Positions 2,974-61,851 of a DNA stretch of 64,000 bases are shown one piece after another. Both the position numbers and the translations under genes were made by a program. The stretch lies in NCBI RefSeq assembly GCF_003790525.1, contig NZ_CP033635.1, one strand, 5' to 3'. Under the pieces are notes generated by a model that was given only the letters and a program-made list of their open reading frames with translations, was not told the DNA's origin and ran no database searches. This DNA is from Escherichia coli (lineage in GTDB: Bacteria; Pseudomonadota; Gammaproteobacteria; Enterobacterales; Enterobacteriaceae). Positions within the stretch are counted from its first letter, which is position 1. Each line of letters begins with the position of its first letter.

Positions 2974-4067
2974 TAGCGTCCCTCAAAATCTATACGCGGA
3001 TCGACCAGCGTATAGCTGATATCACTGACAATATTCAGCAGCAGGCCAATCAGGGTGAAAATATACAAGGTACCAAACATTACAGGATAATCGCGCGAGA
3101 CGGTCGCTTCGTAGCCCAGTAAACCAAGACCATTGAGTGAAAACATCACCTCAATCAGCAGCGAGCCGGTAAAAAACATGCTGATAAACGTCGCCGGAAA
3201 ACCGGCAATCACCAGCAGCATGGCGTTGCGGAACACATGTTTCCAGAGAATATTTTTTTCACTTACCCCTTTCGCGCGCGCGGTCACCACGTATTGCTTG
3301 CGCACTTCATCAAGGAATGAGTTTTTTGTCAGCATGGTCAGCGCTGCAAAGCCACCAATCACAGTCGCCAGCACCGGCAGCGTGATATGCCACAGATAAT
3401 CGGTGATTTTCTGATACCACGGCAGCGAATCAAAGTTAGCGGAAACCAGGCCGCGCAGAGGGAACAGGTCGAAATAGCTGCCGCCCGCGAAGAAGACAAT
3501 CAGCAGGATGGCAAACAAAAAGGCCGGAATGGCGTAGCCGATGATGATAAATGCGCTACTCCAGACGTCAAAGCGGCTCCCATTATAAACAGCTTTGCGA
3601 ATGCCTAACGGAATCGACACCAGATAGATAATCAGCGTGCTCCACAATCCGAGGGTGATGGAAACCGGCAGACTGTCTTTAATCAGCGTCAGCACCGAGG
3701 CGCTGCGAAAAAGGCTGTCGCCAAAATCAAAACGGATGTAGTCCCAGAGCATTTTGAAGTAACGTTCGTGGATCGGCTTATCGAAACCGTAGCGATGAGT
3801 GATCTCGGCGATCACTTCTGGATCTAATCCGCGTCCGCCACGGTAATTACTGTCGCTGATATTGCCGACGCCCGTTTGCGCATGGCTGGCGCGAACACCT
3901 TCACCGCCTGCGCCGGGTAATACTCCGGCATTGCCAAACTCAATGGCGGCGATGGCCTGGTCGACCGGACCGCCAGGCGCAATTTGCACGATGAAAAAGT
4001 TGATAGTGATAATCGCCCATAGCGTTGGGATCACCAGCAACAGACGGCGAATCAGATAAGCGCCCAT
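2973..4067 (-). CDS. yejB: peptide ABC transporter permease
   Basis: ORF track; DppB/OppB-like permease; operon with yejA/E/F. Confidence 0.9.
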
Positions 4068-5882
4068 CTACTCTCCCTGTTGTCTGGCTGACGGCAGTTT
4101 CGTCGCTTTGTTAACGTCATACCACCAGGTATCGATACCCAGGCTGTAAACAGGGCGTACAGCGGGGTGGGAGAATTTATCCCACCAGGCGAGACGGTCT
4201 TCCGCCATATACCACATTGGCAGCATGTAATAATTCCACGTTAATACGCGATCCAGTGCTCGCCCCAACGGCAGTAATTTTTCTTTATTTCCCTGCGCGG
4301 CAATAATTTGGTTGATCAGCGAGTCGATAACCGGGCTTTGCACGCCGGGGGCATTATAAGTGGAATTGATATATTCCGATGACCAGGAAATCTGTAAATC
4401 GGAACTGGGCCACGGCATCGCCCGCCATACGCGCGGCATCATGTCATAGTCGCGACTGCGCATGCGGTTGGTGATTTGAGAGTTATCCACCTTGCGAATA
4501 TCCATGTTGATACCCAGACGTTGCAGGCTGTGCTGGAACGGCAATACCCACTGACTATTACTGCTTGAGGGAAGCAATAATTCAAAGCTGAGTGGCTGAC
4601 CCGTTGTGGCATTAACGCGTTGCTGACCCTTCAGCACCCAGCCTGCTTCGTTAAGAAGTTTGTCGGCTTTTAACAGGTTGTCACGATCGTAGCCATCGCC
4701 TTTGGATACCGGCGGCTGGTAGATTTGCGTGAAGACTTCTGGCGGTAGATCTTTTTTCATTGGTGCCAGAAGCACCAGCTCCGCGGCGTCGGGGTAATTT
4801 CTGGCCGCGTATTCGGTATTCTGAAAATAACTGTTCGTGCGACTCCAGGCATTGTAAAACAACGCTTTGTTCATCCATTCAAAGTCAAAGGCGAGAGTGA
4901 TCGCTTCCCGCACCCGGCGATCGCTGAATACCGGACGTTGGATATTAAACGCCAGCCAGCGCGTATCCTGGGCTGATTCGTTCTTTTGCTCATCTTTGAT
5001 GATGTATTTTTTATCGAAATTTTTACCGGTATAGCGCGTGGCCCAGTTTTTGGCGTCGTTTTCCATACGCAAATCAAAGGCACCTGCTTTAAACGCTTCA
5101 AAGGCGACATTATCATCGAGGTAATAATCGTAGCGAATGGTGTCGAAATTCCAGCGTCCACGGTTTACCGGTAAGTTTGCTGCCCAGTAATCTTTTACGC
5201 GGGAATAGACAATATTTTGCCCCATTTTCCAGGACGTAATGCGGTACGGACCACTGGCAAGCGGAGGCGTGGCGAGCGGGTCGCTAAGTTTGTGATCTTT
5301 CCAGTACTTTTCTGGAAATACCGGCAGCGAAAACAGACTCAGCATATCTTCTTTGCCGGGTTTAGCTAACTCAATGCGCACGGTTAACGGCGCAATGGCT
5401 TTGACGGTGGTGCCTTTGTAGACCAGACGAAATTGCGGCACGCCTTCGGTCATAAATTTTTGAAAAGTAAACTCTACATCGCGGGCAGTAATGGGCGAAC
5501 CATCATGAAAACGGGCGCGCGGATTAATAGCGACCTCCACCCAGGAATAATCGTCAGCATAGCGTGCGCTTTCAGCAATCAGCGGGTAATAACTGCCTGG
5601 TTCGTCATCGGAAGTCGTAAATAGCGTGTCGTACAGCTGCTCGGTGCGTGCGCCCGGGTTGCCGCGTAGTGCATAGCGGTTGAAATTATCGAAGGTGCCG
5701 AGGGCGGACAACGTTATTTGCCCACCTTTTGGCGCGGCGGGGTTCACATAATCAAAATGGTTGAAATTAAATGCGTACCGGGGTTCGCCCAGTACGGCAA
5801 AGGCATAGCTTTCCTTGATAGCCTGCGCCTGCGCACCAAAGGTGAACAGAGCGATAAACAGCAGCAGTATGCGCACAATCAT
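4068..5882 (-). CDS. yejA: periplasmic oligopeptide/microcin C binding protein
   Basis: ORF 4068..5888 (TTG) trimmed to the ATG at 5882; N-terminal signal peptide; family 5 substrate-binding protein. Confidence 0.85.
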
Positions 5883-57291: not shown

Positions 57292-57301
57292 TTTTTGAGA
57301 T

Positions 57302-57332
57302 AAAAATGCCAGCCGATCGGGCTGGCATTTTG
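57302..57332. terminator. bidirectional hairpin terminator between macB and cspD
   Basis: aaaaatgccagccgatcgggctggcattttgcc: stem with an A-run on one side and a T-run on the other. Confidence 0.65.
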
Positions 57333-57363
57333 CCTTTAGGATGTACACAATGAGACAGAAGAG

Positions 57364-57588
57364 CTATGCGACTGCCGCTTCTACTTCGACGGGCACAATA
57401 ACACTGGCGTGATTGCCTTTTGGCCCCTGGTGGACATCAAACTGAACGGATTGTCCAGCTTTTAGCGTTCTGTAACCATCCATCTGAATGGTGGAATAAT
57501 GAGCGAAAATATCTTCGCCGCCGCCTTCAGGGCAGATGAAACCAAACCCTTTGGCATTGTTGAACCACTTAACAGTACCCTTTTCCAT
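57364..57588 (-). CDS. cspD: stationary-phase cold-shock-domain protein CspD
   Basis: ORF 57364..57618 trimmed to the ATG at 57588 (MEKGTVKWFNNAKGFGFI), giving 74 aa. Confidence 0.9.
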   Translation of the reverse strand: MEKGTVKWFNNAKGFGFICPEGGGEDIFAHYSTIQMDGYRTLKAGQSVQFDVHQGPKGNHASVIVPVEVEAAVA

Positions 57589-57808
57589 GCTTCGACATCC
57601 TTCGCAAATCTTATACAAGTAAGATGGAATAAACCGGGGTCAGAGAGGGGGCTGTTCAAAACCTCGCCAACTCTAGAAATACAATTTAGAGAATTAGGGC
57701 GAGCCGTCAAGCATTTGACAGGGGACAGGGGGCAGGTATGAATCAAAAATTTGAAGCAGTTAACGCTATTGACAGGAATGTGACAGATGTCGCTGATGCC
57801 AACGATAG

Positions 57809-57992: not shown

Positions 57993-59231
57993 ATGAGCAG
58001 CGCAATTCATAGACTTAGCGACACTCTTTTACGAAAATTAAGCGGATCACCAACCACAAAAAACGCCTTTTTTAATGACGGTGGCAATCTTAGCGTAAGA
58101 CATTCCACCAGCGGCCTGTTAACCTGGTATTTCACTTACAGGGCCGGAACTGGCAGGCAGGTATCACCGGAACGCCTGAGACTGGGCAACTATCCCGATC
58201 TGAGCCTGAAAGCAGCCAGGGAAAAAGCGGCACAGTGTCGCGCCTGGCTGGCGGAGGGGAAAAATCCACGCCATGAGCTTAATCACACAGTGCAGGAAGC
58301 GTTAGCCCCCGTGACGGTTAAGGACGCGCTCACTTACTGGCTTGAGTCGTATGCGAAGGAAAAGCGCACTGACCACGAATCACTGAAAAGCCGTATCAAT
58401 AAGCACATAATCAGCCAGATTGGTGCTATGCCGCTGGATAAATGCGAGCTACGCCACTGGCTGGCCTGTTTTGACCAGCTTGCTAAGCGTAATCCGGTAT
58501 CAGCCGGCTTTTTGTTGCAGGTATGCAAACAGGCGCTTAAGTACTGCCGTAAACGTCGCTACGCCGTCAGTAACGTTCTTGATGATATGGTCGTAGGTGA
58601 TGTGGGAAAAAAAGCAGAAATAAGCGAGCGAGTGCTAACAAACAAGGAGCTTGGCGAGCTACTCCGCGCACTGGATGAAAAAATTTTCCCGCCGTACTAC
58701 AGCGCTTTAATTCGCCTTCTGATTGTCTTCGGATGCCGTACCACTGAGCTAAGACGCTCCGAGGTTCGGGAATGGGATTTTAAAGAAATGCTCTGGACTG
58801 TGCCGAAAGAACACAGCAAAACGAAGGTAGCAATATTCAGGCCAATACCGGAAGCGATCTTGCCGTTCGTCATGAAGCTGGTGGAGCAGAACAGGCACAC
58901 GGGCTTATTGCTTGGAGAACTGAAAGGGCAATCATCCGTAGCAGAGTACGGAAGAACGGCACACAGACGCATTAATCAAGCCCCCTGGTCGTTGCACGAC
59001 ATCCGGCACACATTTACAACCATGCTGAACGATTTAGGCGTGGATCCGCATATTGTCGAACAGCTTACTGCCCACCAGATGCCAGGAATGCAACGCGTCT
59101 ATAACCACTCCCGTTATCTCGATGCAAAGCGTGACGCTCTTAATCTATGGGTAGACCGTCTCGAGCTTCTCCAGAACAATGATGAAAAAATCGTTGTTAT
59201 GACCCCGCGAATTTACCCCCAAAATTCTTGA
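57993..59231 (+). CDS. P4-type tyrosine integrase
   Basis: ORF track 412 aa; N-terminal DUF4102-like arm-binding region and C-terminal tyrosine recombinase motifs (HDIRHTF ... YNHSRY); not present at this locus in K-12. Confidence 0.85.
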   Translation: MSSAIHRLSDTLLRKLSGSPTTKNAFFNDGGNLSVRHSTSGLLTWYFTYRAGTGRQVSPERLRLGNYPDLSLKAAREKAAQCRAWLAEGKNPRHELNHTVQEALAPVTVKDALTYWLESYAKEKRTDHESLKSRINKHIISQIGAMPLDKCELRHWLACFDQLAKRNPVSAGFLLQVCKQALKYCRKRRYAVSNVLDDMVVGDVGKKAEISERVLTNKELGELLRALDEKIFPPYYSALIRLLIVFGCRTTELRRSEVREWDFKEMLWTVPKEHSKTKVAIFRPIPEAILPFVMKLVEQNRHTGLLLGELKGQSSVAEYGRTAHRRINQAPWSLHDIRHTFTTMLNDLGVDPHIVEQLTAHQMPGMQRVYNHSRYLDAKRDALNLWVDRLELLQNNDEKIVVMTPRIYPQNS

Positions 59232-59650: not shown

Positions 59651-59860
59651 ATGCGTGAAATAAATGAAGATCGCGTAATCCGTGAGGATGAATGTCGTAA
59701 GTTAACTGGAGTGTGTCGCACTACACGCTACGAACTGGAGAAAAAAGGGAGCTTTCCGTCTCGCCGTAATCTTGGTGGGCGTTCTGTAGGTTGGCTGCTG
59801 TCCGAGGTTATGGAATGGGTTAAAAGCCGGGATCGCATTAATTCAGGCAAGGCAGCGTAA
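59651..59860 (+). CDS. AlpA-family phage regulatory protein / excisionase-like HTH
   Basis: within ORF 59564..59860; C-terminal 69 aa match the AlpA pattern (KLTGVCRTTRYELEKKGSFP ... GGRSVGWLLSEVMEWV); alternative GTG start at 59564. Confidence 0.7.
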   Translation: MREINEDRVIREDECRKLTGVCRTTRYELEKKGSFPSRRNLGGRSVGWLLSEVMEWVKSRDRINSGKAA

Positions 59861-59998
59861 AGGGGAGTATATGACACATAAAACAAAGGCGACCGGGGGC
59901 GGTCGCCAATGGGAAAACACTAAACATAAGCCCGAACATCATAGCGATTTGCTGGCTGGTGGGCAATGTGTCCAGTGTGGTGGCTTGCTGGTGGATTG

Positions 59999-60190
59999 TC
60001 AGCCAGGTGGGCGGTTTTTGTTTGCTTTTAAGCGCCGAGGGTATTTCTCGACAAAAGGATCAAGGGCGAACTTATCAGGAACTTTAAGATTTTCAGTGCG
60101 GGTTAATGCCTTATTTATTTCCCTGCGGGTTTTCTCACGCTGGCGCATGATAATTGATAATGCTTTATTTTGTAGTTCCTGGTTATTCAT
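59999..60190 (-). CDS. hypothetical small protein (63 aa)
   Basis: within ORF 59999..60199; ATG at 60190 with AAGGTGA SD; basic/helical composition; convergent with alpA, separated by the hairpin ggcgaccgggggcggtcgcc at 59888-59907. Confidence 0.5.
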   Translation of the reverse strand: MNNQELQNKALSIIMRQREKTRREINKALTRTENLKVPDKFALDPFVEKYPRRLKANKNRPPG

Positions 60191-60247
60191 AATTATCACC
60201 TTTAAAACAATGCGCCGCAGTACCTCACACCACGGCGCTGATAGTGA

Positions 60248-60427
60248 TTATTCTGATTCTTTGGCCTTGCGGCGCTGGCGGTATTCAACTTCTCGCTTTA
60301 ATGCTGCTGTTACAAACTGCCCTGTACTTTCACCAGGCATTTTTACCGCCTCAACATTGTTCATAACTTCATGCGGAACCCTTGCCGCAACTGTTTGTGA
60401 TTTTGCGTTTACTGCTTTTGTCGCCAT
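60248..60427 (-). CDS. putative ribbon-helix-helix DNA-binding protein (59 aa)
   Basis: ATG at 60427, TAA at 60248; below the 60-aa cutoff of the ORF track; strand-helix-loop-helix pattern (TVAARVPHEVMNNVEAVKMPGESTGQFVTAALKRE); directly downstream of the palindromic operators. Confidence 0.5.
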   Translation of the reverse strand: MATKAVNAKSQTVAARVPHEVMNNVEAVKMPGESTGQFVTAALKREVEYRQRRKAKESE

Positions 60428-60477
60428 GTTGTGTACCCCTTACAAAAAACAAATGCAGTATGCAGGAAAAAAAATAA

Positions 60478-60529
60478 GTGTTCAACACTTGGCGTGTTTA
60501 ACACCTAGGCTTAAATTGGTGTTCAACAC
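60478..60529. promoter_or_regulatory. three palindromic operator-like sites GTGTT(c/t)AACAC
   Basis: gtgttcaacac at 60478-60488, gtgtttaacac at 60494-60504, gtgttcaacac at 60519-60529; in the divergent region upstream of the RHH gene. Confidence 0.6.
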
Positions 60530-61851
60530 CTTGTTGATGAAAGGTGCAGAAACGACGAAACCCCGCACTGTTGGAGCAGTAACGGGGCTTCTAACCACCA
60601 ACGATAGAAAGCGTATCGAGGTAGCTATGTTAAATCATACCACACACCCGCAAGGGCGGGACCCGCACAACCTGAATAAATACATCTGGCGTTTTATCGC
60701 CCTGAGCACAGCACAACCACGCGTTATTACCATCGGGGCCACCAGCGAACAGGAAGCCCGCCAGCAATCCCCGACTGGCTGGGTGATGGTATTGGCCTCC
60801 AGATTTCATCATCGCTGTTTGTTTTTTGTCTGTCTCTCCTCGGGGTATGGGGTTGTGCCGTTCCAGCGTATGCGGGGCCGTTCACTGATGAAGCGCTCAA
60901 GCGGGAAATTATCGGATGGCGCGGGGGGCCGTACCCGTCGTTCCCGCCTCCGCTGGCGTACCACGCTGGCTTCGGTAATTTCCCCTGATTCGTTTATTTT
61001 CATAAAGAGTTACCTCCGTGCTCATCTGCTCTGGCGTTTTCTGTTTCTGATGAAGACTTACAGCGGTAGCGGCGTATCTTATCTTAAGATTTGGTTTAAT
61101 TTCTCGTGTCTGGCTTTAATGACGGCGCGTAATAATATCTGTCGCTGCTTTGTGTTTACGTCCAGAACTGTGGGGGATAATATGGATTTGTTCATGGTGC
61201 TCACCTGTAATGCATTGCGTCGTGATGCCTCATATCACGGCGGCGGTTATCGTTTTGTTCGGATTCGTCCCCTGATGAAATCCTCAAGCGGAAAATGTTC
61301 AGGGCGAGGTAATTCAGGAGGGACAGGGTTATTACTCATGCGCTCACGTTCCCTTGCGGCGCGTGCAGCATTCAGCTTTTGCAGGAGCACATCAAACGGC
61401 ACCCCCTTATCATTCATGGTCCCCCCTGTATATCCGTTGTTAACTGATGGTTACAGGTGCATTTTTCGCACAAACTATTTAATCAACACATCCGACCACA
61501 TTATCAGAGAGCCGGAATATACAGGGGCAATAATCCCGCATTTGCTGGCCTACGCACAGCTTACCGCTGATATGGCACTGAATGAGGCCAAAGCCATCCT
61601 GATTGCTGATTGTGAATATGGGGTTATGCGTGATGATCGTTTTAATGCCCTGAAACAGGAATTTGATGGCACACCGGAAGATACAGATATTGCGCTGTTA
61701 TGTGTTGCTGACATGGTAAAAGCTGCATGTTTTTTACTGGAAACCGCCGAACATTCAGGAACGGGTAGCGATATTCTCAATATTGCGTCGGACTATGCTG
61801 AATATGTGGCAGAGGCGCGTTACAGAAGAAAATTCCAGGAGGTGGTTAGCC

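Follow-up and report, generated by a model that had tools for sequence, protein, structure and literature searches.

A predicted YlcI/YnfO-family repressor with three operators and a SymR-like antisense RNA in the control region of an Escherichia coli phage satellite

Our analysis of a 64 000 nucleotide (nt) stretch of Escherichia coli DNA (contig NZ_CP033635.1 of assembly GCF_003790525.1, the whole of which is termed the window) identified a control region, located within a phage satellite of the phage-inducible chromosomal island (PICI) type, in which three short palindromes are probably the operators of a small repressor of the YlcI/YnfO family and ribbon–helix–helix (RHH) type. Together with a SymR-like antisense RNA, this repressor would silence the replication genes of the satellite in the manner of an immunity region, and we assign this interpretation a probability of approximately 0.7. 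The promoter that the operators appear mainly to control is PR, which is directed toward an icd-like gene, and both PR and the antisense RNA were missed in a preliminary description of this DNA, which reported a divergent layout of a gene of 59 amino acids (aa) and a gene of 63 aa beside the palindromes. The divergent layout is real, with the icd-like open reading frame (ORF) on the plus strand, starting at 60627, and the ylcI-like and 63-aa genes on the minus strand. The elements of the control region are as follows.

60248 to 60427, minus strand: ylcI-like gene of 59 aa, candidate RHH repressor (NF041551, phrog_949 and RefSeq)
60457 to 60485, minus strand: PL, predicted promoter for ylcI, read from the sequence, with −35 TTGAAC (60485–60480), a 17-nt spacer and −10 CATACT (60462–60457)
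60478 to 60488, either strand: putative operator O1 (GTGTTCAACAC), which contains the −35 of PL
60489 to 60517, plus strand: PR, predicted promoter toward icd-like, read from the sequence, with −35 TTGGCG (60489–60494), a 17-nt spacer and −10 TAAATT (60512–60517)
60494 to 60504, either strand: putative operator O2 (GTGTTTAACAC), which occupies the −35/−10 spacer of PR
60519 to 60529, either strand: putative operator O3 (GTGTTCAACAC), over the predicted transcription start of PR
60548 to 60627, minus strand: predicted SymR-like cis-antisense RNA of approximately 80 nt, with a 5′ hairpin, single-stranded UUGGUGGUUAGA, a terminator hairpin and a U-rich tail
60627 to 60806, plus strand: icd-like ORF (ATG at 60627; Icd-like domain at approximately 60681–60806; NF033153, 52.6 bits; phrog_6196, 120.9 bits)
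60634 to 60639, minus strand: candidate −10 of the antisense RNA, TATGAT, preceded by TGg and situated within the first icd-like codons

The three near-identical palindromes reported within 52 bp upstream of the 59-aa gene were confirmed as exact matches to GTGTTYAACAC, and these are the only exact matches in the window. When one mismatch was allowed there were 9 strand-matches, compared to an expectation of 2.2 ± 1.5, and none of 100 shuffles reached 9. A search of the rest of the island, which had been proposed as a check, returned no additional sites, including in the complete island of strain TUM1886 (locus L001). The ATG of the ylcI-like gene lies 51 nt from the nearest palindrome, and the gene itself has the position and strand previously described and is annotated by RefSeq in identical islands.

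The geometry of the region was compared across 29 ylcI loci, which were obtained from a scan of one genome per species and come from Edwardsiella, Pectobacterium, Kosakonia, Yokenella, Limnobaculum, Xenorhabdus, Proteus, Klebsiella, Tenebrionibacter and others. In approximately 24 of the 29, representing approximately 12 genera, the island is of the same type: alpA and int are downstream of ylcI and convergent with it, whereas the icd-like and primase genes are upstream and divergent. Within related loci the 220 nt upstream of ylcI follow a rigid plan. PR is near-consensus, and its −35, TTGACG (TTGGCG in the window), is 61 nt from the ylcI ATG in approximately 22 loci, which is nearly all of them, and in approximately 22 loci the first 11-bp site (O2) begins at the last base of this −35 and occupies the spacer. 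The −10 of PR (TAnnnT) follows 17–18 nt after the −35 in the relatives, and the next copy of the site (O3) is positioned 0–2 nt past the −10 and, in all loci, 22–25 bp from O2, centre to centre. The −10 for ylcI, (C/T)ATACT, has the same position on the opposite strand in all loci. The third copy directly follows the PL −10 in most loci and overlies the PL −35 in the window, and locus L006 has both.

Against this constant framework the sequence of the sites varies in concert. Approximately 10 operator classes were distinguished among the loci, examples of which are GTGTTCAACAC, GTGGCTGACAC, GTGTCCGACAC, GTGGAGTCCAC, GTGGACCACAC, CTGGGTGCCAG, CTGTACTCCAC and CTGGAATCCAG, and within a single locus the copies agree to 0–3 mismatches, with constant promoter hexamers between them. 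Three sites changing together, beyond what chance and linkage alone would give, points to a locus-specific binding factor. Distances between operators correlated with distances between YlcI proteins (r=0.58 for the β-segment and r=0.71 for the rest of the protein, Mantel p=2e-4), and the corresponding value for the Icd-like proteins was r=0.19 (p=0.07, partial correlation approximately 0). An identical YlcI and the same operator sequences are found in the window and in the Edwardsiella locus L002 despite unrelated AlpA and Int proteins, whereas the AlpA of locus L022 resembles that of the window and the operators differ. Taken together, these comparisons suggest that the operator sequence tracks YlcI, rather than Icd-like or AlpA.

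The interval of approximately 100 nt that separates O3 from the ATG of icd-like is both conserved and structured. The alignment of this interval folded at −34.6 kcal/mol when read on the ylcI strand, compared to −9.1 kcal/mol when read as the PR transcript, and the ylcI-strand fold comprised 26 pairs, 16 of which displayed compensatory changes. For the same pairs, 96.1 % of alignment cells were canonical on the ylcI strand, with 88 G–U cells, compared to 79.2 % and a single G–U cell on the opposite strand. This G–U asymmetry assigns the structure to the strand opposite the PR mRNA, and the alternative of leader hairpins formed by the PR mRNA itself was rejected upon the same basis. In the window, the minus-strand RNA at 60546–60628 folded at −35.2 kcal/mol (z=−5.2; 0/200 shuffles) and the plus strand at −21.9 kcal/mol (z=−1.8). 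The 5′ hairpin of the antisense RNA holds the anti-start codon, and the anti-Shine–Dalgarno sequence occupies its loop in the majority of relatives and the position immediately 5′ of the hairpin in the window; the hairpin is followed by a single-stranded stretch with the consensus UUGUGGUUAGA (UUGGUGGUUAGA in the window), and then by a GC-rich hairpin and a U-rich tail that ends just before O3.

Covariance model R1, derived from the satellite RNAs, produced one match in the window, at 60545–60648 on the minus strand, and none in islands lacking ylcI. When R1 was run against E. coli K-12, the annotated symR was the only match in 12 kb (33.3 bits, rough E value 4e-7), and in the resulting alignment the TGgTATGAT of the window (60639–60634) falls on the symR −10, TAGAAT, which has been defined experimentally by mutation (PMC1891008). 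In the reciprocal direction, the Rfam symR model (RF01809) matched loci L006 and L010 end to end with 28 bits, which is below its gathering threshold of 61. The RNA of the satellites is encoded in cis, in antisense orientation across the 5′ end of its target gene, has two hairpins of which the second is a terminator, and shows reciprocal similarity to K-12 symR. We conclude that it is a SymR-like cis-antisense RNA, which is predicted to be aimed at the translation start of icd-like. A C4-type RNA, which would have been expected by analogy with the c4–icd arrangement of P1, was also considered and received no support from Rfam, as neither the C4 nor the isrK model gave a match at E values up to 1–10 in the window or in eight relatives. 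No description of SymR relatives in satellites was found in the literature searched.

The resemblance to SymR/symE of K-12 (RF01809; Kawano et al. 2007, PMC1891008) extends to several features, in that both are cis-antisense RNAs of approximately 77–80 nt that start at the start codon of their target, both have a −10 inside the first codons of the target, the same two-hairpin architecture and shared blocks (UUGUGnUUAG), and in both systems the promoter of the target would additionally be under a protein repressor. They differ in that the satellite RNAs score below the Rfam gathering threshold, with the window copy unmatched, and in that the satellite target is icd-like rather than SymE and the predicted repressor is YlcI at its own operators rather than LexA. 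Relative to the antisense RNA, symE of K-12 has a LexA box where the satellites have YlcI operators (L035, 5912–5945). Given this equivalent position, the promoter–leader–RNA unit seems to be shared and the repressor sites exchanged.

The 59-aa protein matched the NCBIfam model NF041551 (YlcI_YnfO_N) with 59.7 bits (cut-off 30), its residues 9–50 covering profile positions 1–42 of 42, and it matched phrog_949, a family with no functional annotation, with an E value of 6.5e-22; RefSeq names the product a YlcI/YnfO family protein. Among 74 homologues, K9, S10, R16, H19 and G32-E33-S34 were invariant and residues 11–15 were variable. The sequence follows a plan of an alternating segment (S10-Q-T-V-A-A-R16), then P-H-E, a helix at 19–28, the invariant G-E-S turn and a helix at 35–58, and the AlphaFold monomer has helices at 19–28 and 35–58. 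The pattern KSQTVAARVPHEV...GES...FV aligned with KMPQFNLRWPREV of Arc in the expected register in a single hhalign comparison, with an E value of 0.007 and a probability of only 5 %. A full hidden Markov model search returned 69 remote relatives, for which most Pfam matches were to families of the RHH clan (PSK_trans_fac, RHH_1, RHH_5, CopG_antitoxin, CB_ParB_C and HicB-like), every one of them weak, and the named matches in AFDB50 were mainly CopG/RHH proteins and antitoxins, none with an E value ≤0.001. This constitutes an indirect but coherent case for an RHH fold in the 59-aa protein, which is inferred here to act as a dimeric repressor. Insertion of a two-stranded β-ribbon of the dimer into the major groove of repeated sites would be in keeping with the concerted change of those sites and the protein.

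YlcI of K-12 displays the same strand–helix–turn–helix pattern (RNIRFPNQMIEQINIALEQKGSGNFSAWVIEACRRRL) and, like YnfO, belongs to the same NCBIfam family. These namesakes differ in setting, as they sit in lambdoid prophages (DLP12 for YlcI, Qin for YnfO), divergent from the small-terminase gene nohD near cos, and have no assigned function. In DLP12, ylcI was observed in this divergent arrangement with nohD in the cos region (L038, 4252–4835). No description of a function for YlcI/YnfO was found in the literature searched.

Building upon the observed sites, their geometry and concerted variation, and upon the structure and strand of the RNA, we infer DNA binding and repression by YlcI and a function for the RNA, and the following mechanism can be proposed. 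Dimers of the YlcI-like protein, made from PL, would bind the three 11-bp sites. With O2 in the PR spacer and O3 across the PR −10/+1 both occupied, RNA polymerase would be kept off PR, and icd-like (and, in the relatives, the primase operon) would stay switched off, while occupation of O1 over the PL −35 would allow the repressor to limit its own synthesis. The 5′ end of the antisense RNA is predicted to coincide with the start codon of icd-like. The RNA is a perfect complement of the PR leader, the Shine–Dalgarno sequence and the AUG, and may thereby block translation of those PR transcripts that escape, as SymR does for symE. By analogy with c4–icd–ant of P1 and CI of P4, blocked translation of icd-like would exert polarity on the downstream replication genes.

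Several observations weigh against this interpretation. A generic promoter scan called neither PR nor PL, and the Rfam symR model had no match in the window. The 59-aa protein itself matched no Pfam family, had no sequence match in the Protein Data Bank (PDB) and returned nothing from Foldseek against the PDB, and a broader profile (A4) run against the PDB gave spurious matches only. Its N-terminal segment is undefined in the AlphaFold monomer, with no β-strand, whether or not an alignment was supplied, which would be expected if the strand forms only in the dimer. The correlations between operators and YlcI are inflated by linkage, as the gene and its sites are adjacent. Furthermore, the partial correlation of the β-segment with the operator, given the rest of the protein, was small (r=0.13), and loci L024 and L026 have identical residues 10–16 (SQKIQAR) and different operators (CTGTACTCCAC and CTGGAATCCAG, respectively). 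The notion that the β-strand residues alone set the operator class was dropped, since their effect is not separable from that of the rest of the protein and these two loci provide a counter-example; the strand is therefore not the sole determinant of specificity. The N-terminal arms of L024 and L026 differ (N4/N8 compared to D4/K8), and the arm may contribute to specificity. Lastly, the icd-like ORF of the window lacks the conserved C-terminal ...ARLPxxEVRH of its relatives and its own stop codon, and three small minus-strand ORFs (60809–61417) lie between it and the DUF4222 and primase genes. With a C-terminally truncated icd-like facing convergent small genes, the output of PR in this particular island is uncertain.

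The preliminary description had further proposed that the 59-aa and 63-aa genes form a repressor–partner pair, resembling a toxin–antitoxin (TA) module. Three further leftward features are as follows.

59888 to 59907, minus strand: leftward intrinsic terminator, with a T-tract on the minus strand only and no U-run after it on the plus strand
59999 to 60190, minus strand: 63-aa basic protein gene (ATG at 60190), accessory, from a small family found only in E. coli, with a C-terminal F-A-L-D/E-x-F motif
60212 to 60238, minus strand: terminator-like hairpin separating ylcI from the 63-aa gene, called by scan, with the same hairpin preceding a 62-aa homologue in islands without ylcI

The 63-aa gene is present as described, basic, on the strand of the 59-aa gene and annotated by RefSeq in identical islands, and the arrangement does have the appearance of a type II module: an RHH protein and a small protein encoded 57 nt apart on one strand, remote family members that resemble VapB and CopG antitoxins, and a second E. 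coli island (L036) in which ylcI is again followed by a member of the 63-aa family. However, the pair is not conserved together. No homologue of the 63-aa gene adjoins ylcI in 24 loci of other genera, including L002 with its identical YlcI, and a variant with 57 % identity occurs commonly in ylcI-free islands of E. coli. The family comprises seven clusters confined to E. coli and occurs in multiple copies: locus L033 (3758–4747), which has no ylcI, contains four tandem small genes, three of which encode F-A-L-D/E-x-F followed by hydrophobic and basic residues at the C-terminus, and the window has further members on the minus strand at 60809–61003 and 61247–61417, with a shortened one at 61079–61204. 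The terminator-like hairpin separates the two genes, the operators bracket the opposite promoter and not just that of the pair, and the 63-aa protein matched nothing in NCBIfam, PHROGs, Pfam or PADLOC, and thus no toxin or defence family, nor anything in a phage collection by tblastn. An obligate partner or a TA pair is very unlikely on this evidence, and the comparisons indicate an accessory gene, unrelated to ylcI, whose downstream position is a matter of chance. What stands of the earlier proposal is an RHH-like and probably autoregulated repressor with a triple operator in an immunity-type switch, which the family assignment, the RHH-like pattern, the weak RHH-clan matches, the geometry and the concerted operators favour; the dedicated partner does not stand, and the Pfam search that had been suggested as a check matched neither protein. 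Small basic proteins of this family, mostly with the F-A-L-D/E-x-F C-terminus, were seen only in PICI-like islands of E. coli. In many relatives, a rightward gene of the BRO-N/AntA (antirepressor-like) type was observed between alpA and ylcI (L002, 513–1208; L031, 4496–5344), which is the place taken by the 63-aa gene in the window.

Other accounts of the palindromes were also weighed. They might be bound by a different factor, such as AlpA, the integrase or an excisionase, Icd-like or a host protein, or might be replication iterons, with YlcI unrelated to them. AlpA binds DNA and activates PICI genes, and PHROGs labels the Icd-like family a transcriptional repressor, but the sites do not follow Icd-like and are shared with or differ from those of L002 and L022 irrespective of AlpA and Int, as set out above; the approximately 10 locus-specific classes speak against a conserved host factor, and the sites are located within promoter elements, away from the primase and origin region. 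We regard this account as unlikely. It is more improbable still that the palindromes act as hairpins (terminators or attenuators) in nucleic acid rather than as protein sites. A scan does flag 60518–60530 as terminator-like, but the stem is just 5 bp with a loop of 1–3 nt, and in several classes, indeed in most relatives (GTGGCTGACAC, for example), the 11-mer is not palindromic, with symmetry only in the outer GTG..CAC and with all copies in one orientation, which excludes a hairpin function. The cassette may instead be an inherited relic of recombination, in which PR drives only the truncated icd-like and the control of replication has been lost in this island. The truncation and the three small ORFs described above fit such a history, as does L036, in which an intact second icd-like gene comes after this cassette. 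On the other hand, ylcI, the three sites and both promoters are intact, as is the fold of the RNA (z=−5.2), the rightward frame is open for 662 codons, near-identical copies occur in five genomes and versions with ≥90 % identity in 553, so that we consider a relic rather unlikely, if a good deal less so than the preceding accounts. In L036 (3880–4422) the truncated icd-like copy and the intact one were observed in succession, an arrangement suggestive of insertion of the ylcI cassette through recombination.

A further feature of the region is the frame that contains icd-like.

59871 to 61859, plus strand: stop-free rightward frame of 662 codons, with an ATG at 59871, 11 nt after the alpA stop, preceded by AAGGGGAG

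The frame runs antisense to the 63-aa gene and ylcI, then crosses the two promoters, the operators and the RNA gene, and enters icd-like in frame. An equivalent ORF of 429 codons in L036 (E. coli, same insertion site; 3133–4422) likewise starts 11 nt after alpA and ends at the stop of the intact icd-like gene, and the long ORFs of the window, L006 and L027 have the Icd-like domain as their C-terminus. Across 25 satellite loci, stops antisense to ylcI numbered 82, 0 and 94 in the three frames, and those in the 200-nt control region numbered 144, 20 and 129, with the middle frame stop-free in 18 loci. Randomization of the synonymous codons of ylcI gave a chance of no stop of 0.05–0.65 per locus, the product of which is 3e-9 over 14 lineage representatives. 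In two ylcI homologues from outside satellites, the corresponding frame contains two stops. We tentatively suggest that the frame may be kept stop-free by selection because it is translated, with AlpA-activated read-through carrying ribosomes across the cassette, although we hold this to be doubtful. Were it true, ribosomes would protect the transcripts against both Rho and the SymR-like RNA, and would collide with transcription of ylcI, so that the switch could flip without removal of the repressor, and the synonymous sites of ylcI would be constrained by an ORF on the opposite strand. The N-terminal 270 residues of the long ORF matched nothing in Pfam. Its start, 'MTxKTKAxxxGR', was considered as a conserved peptide and is better accounted for as the opposite-strand reading of the leftward terminator; the leftward terminators have T-tracts on the minus strand only. 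The Prokaryotic Genome Annotation Pipeline annotates pieces of this frame, namely a 478-aa ‘Icd-like’ coding sequence (CDS) that starts inside ylcI and covers the operators (L001, 16927–18360, equal to window 60426–61859), and an incomplete ‘ash family protein’ in L036 (3682–4203). Both are probably artefacts of the open frame and a match to the Icd-like model, which exposes a systematic error in annotation whereby ‘Icd-like’ or ‘ash family’ CDSs of 400–480 aa are laid over operators.

The island in which the control region is found is approximately 10.5 kb in length and is inserted between cspD/yljB and clpS of E. coli. It carries, in its left part, the following genes.

57993 to 59231, plus strand: tyrosine integrase gene (int), from the ORF list and RefSeq annotation
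59651 to 59860, plus strand: alpA, from PHROGs and RefSeq annotation, a known activator of Gram-negative PICIs (PMC6092414)

In the identical island of strain TUM1886 (L001), RefSeq annotates an integrase, an AlpA-type regulator, the 63-aa hypothetical protein, the YlcI/YnfO family protein and ‘Icd-like’, followed by DUF4222, primase, SSB, PerC, ProQ/FinO and a small-terminase-like (TerS-like) gene. A gene set of this kind defines the Gram-negative PICIs (Fillol-Salom et al. 2018, PMC6092414), and the island has the expected int, alpA and primase/replication module, a length of approximately 10 kb and a specific chromosomal site, and is without virion structural genes. AlpA is the published activator, being both necessary and sufficient for replication of EcCICFT073, and transcription of the Gram-negative PICIs previously described is unidirectional, with no known repressor (PMC6092414). 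The present island departs from this description, as ylcI, the 63-aa gene and the RNA are all directed leftward between alpA and the replication genes. The ylcI gene and control region were detected in 553 of 5426 complete E. coli genomes (≥80 % coverage), and the satellite YlcI subfamily had zero matches by tblastn in 50 697 phage records. The Rfam int-alpA RNA (RF02996) scored above its gathering threshold in the int–alpA interval of L003 (6853–6921) and L020 (6519–6587) and had no match in the corresponding spacer of the window. Elsewhere in the window, the cspA thermoregulator model matched cspD and its leader (57300–57693, minus strand) with 41.6 bits, below its gathering score of 78. A second integrase-bearing island, with an integrase, a YfjI family protein and a helix–turn–helix (HTH) regulator, was observed past clpA in the same strain (L001, 28314–33499).

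The immunity region immI of phage P22 comprises the RHH repressors Mnt and Arc, the promoters Pant and Pmnt and the sar antisense RNA. It is the closest functional parallel to the region described here, as both would have a small RHH repressor encoded divergently from the promoter that it represses, operators in the spacer and at the start site, and a short antisense RNA over the ribosome-binding site of the downstream gene. The two differ in that there is no demonstrable sequence homology beyond the weak alignment to Arc (E value 0.007, probability 5 %), in that the satellite has three discrete sites of 11 bp, at spacings of 16 and 25 bp, in that its first gene is icd-like rather than arc or ant, and in that the element is a satellite, not a phage. 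In immI of P1 and P7 the order is c4 RNA, icd and ant, and P4 immunity involves the CI RNA and eta/kil. The likeness here is an ORF of the Icd family at the head of the controlled operon and an RNA that acts on its translation start, for which polarity on the downstream genes would be the likely consequence by analogy, whereas the satellite RNA matches neither C4 nor isrK in Rfam and the satellite would additionally have a protein repressor. Gram-negative PICIs have been reported with immunity RNAs, identified by the C4 and isrK models, in this zone (PMC10111431). The Stl and Rpr master repressors of Gram-positive PICIs (PMC6092414) are also encoded divergently from the replication module of their island, but are larger HTH proteins and of a class unrelated to the predicted 59-aa RHH protein. 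Judged by its organization, the satellite switch may be regarded as a variant of an immI-like phage immunity module.

In summary, the principle of an RHH repressor and its operators is an ordinary one, and what is new is the functional assignment proposed for YlcI/YnfO, the leftward repressor module of multiple specificity classes in Gram-negative PICIs, the relationship to SymR and the stop-free frame. Our study points to a subgroup of Gram-negative PICIs with a leftward repressor, which is present in approximately 10 % of the complete genomes of E. coli and is represented in 12 or more enterobacterial genera, and the approximately 10 operator specificity classes of which resemble immunity types. 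It also provides a first functional hypothesis for the YlcI/YnfO family, which is still counted among the uncharacterized y-genes of E. coli, and would link the orphan SymR/symE control region of the chromosome to the control region of mobile satellites.

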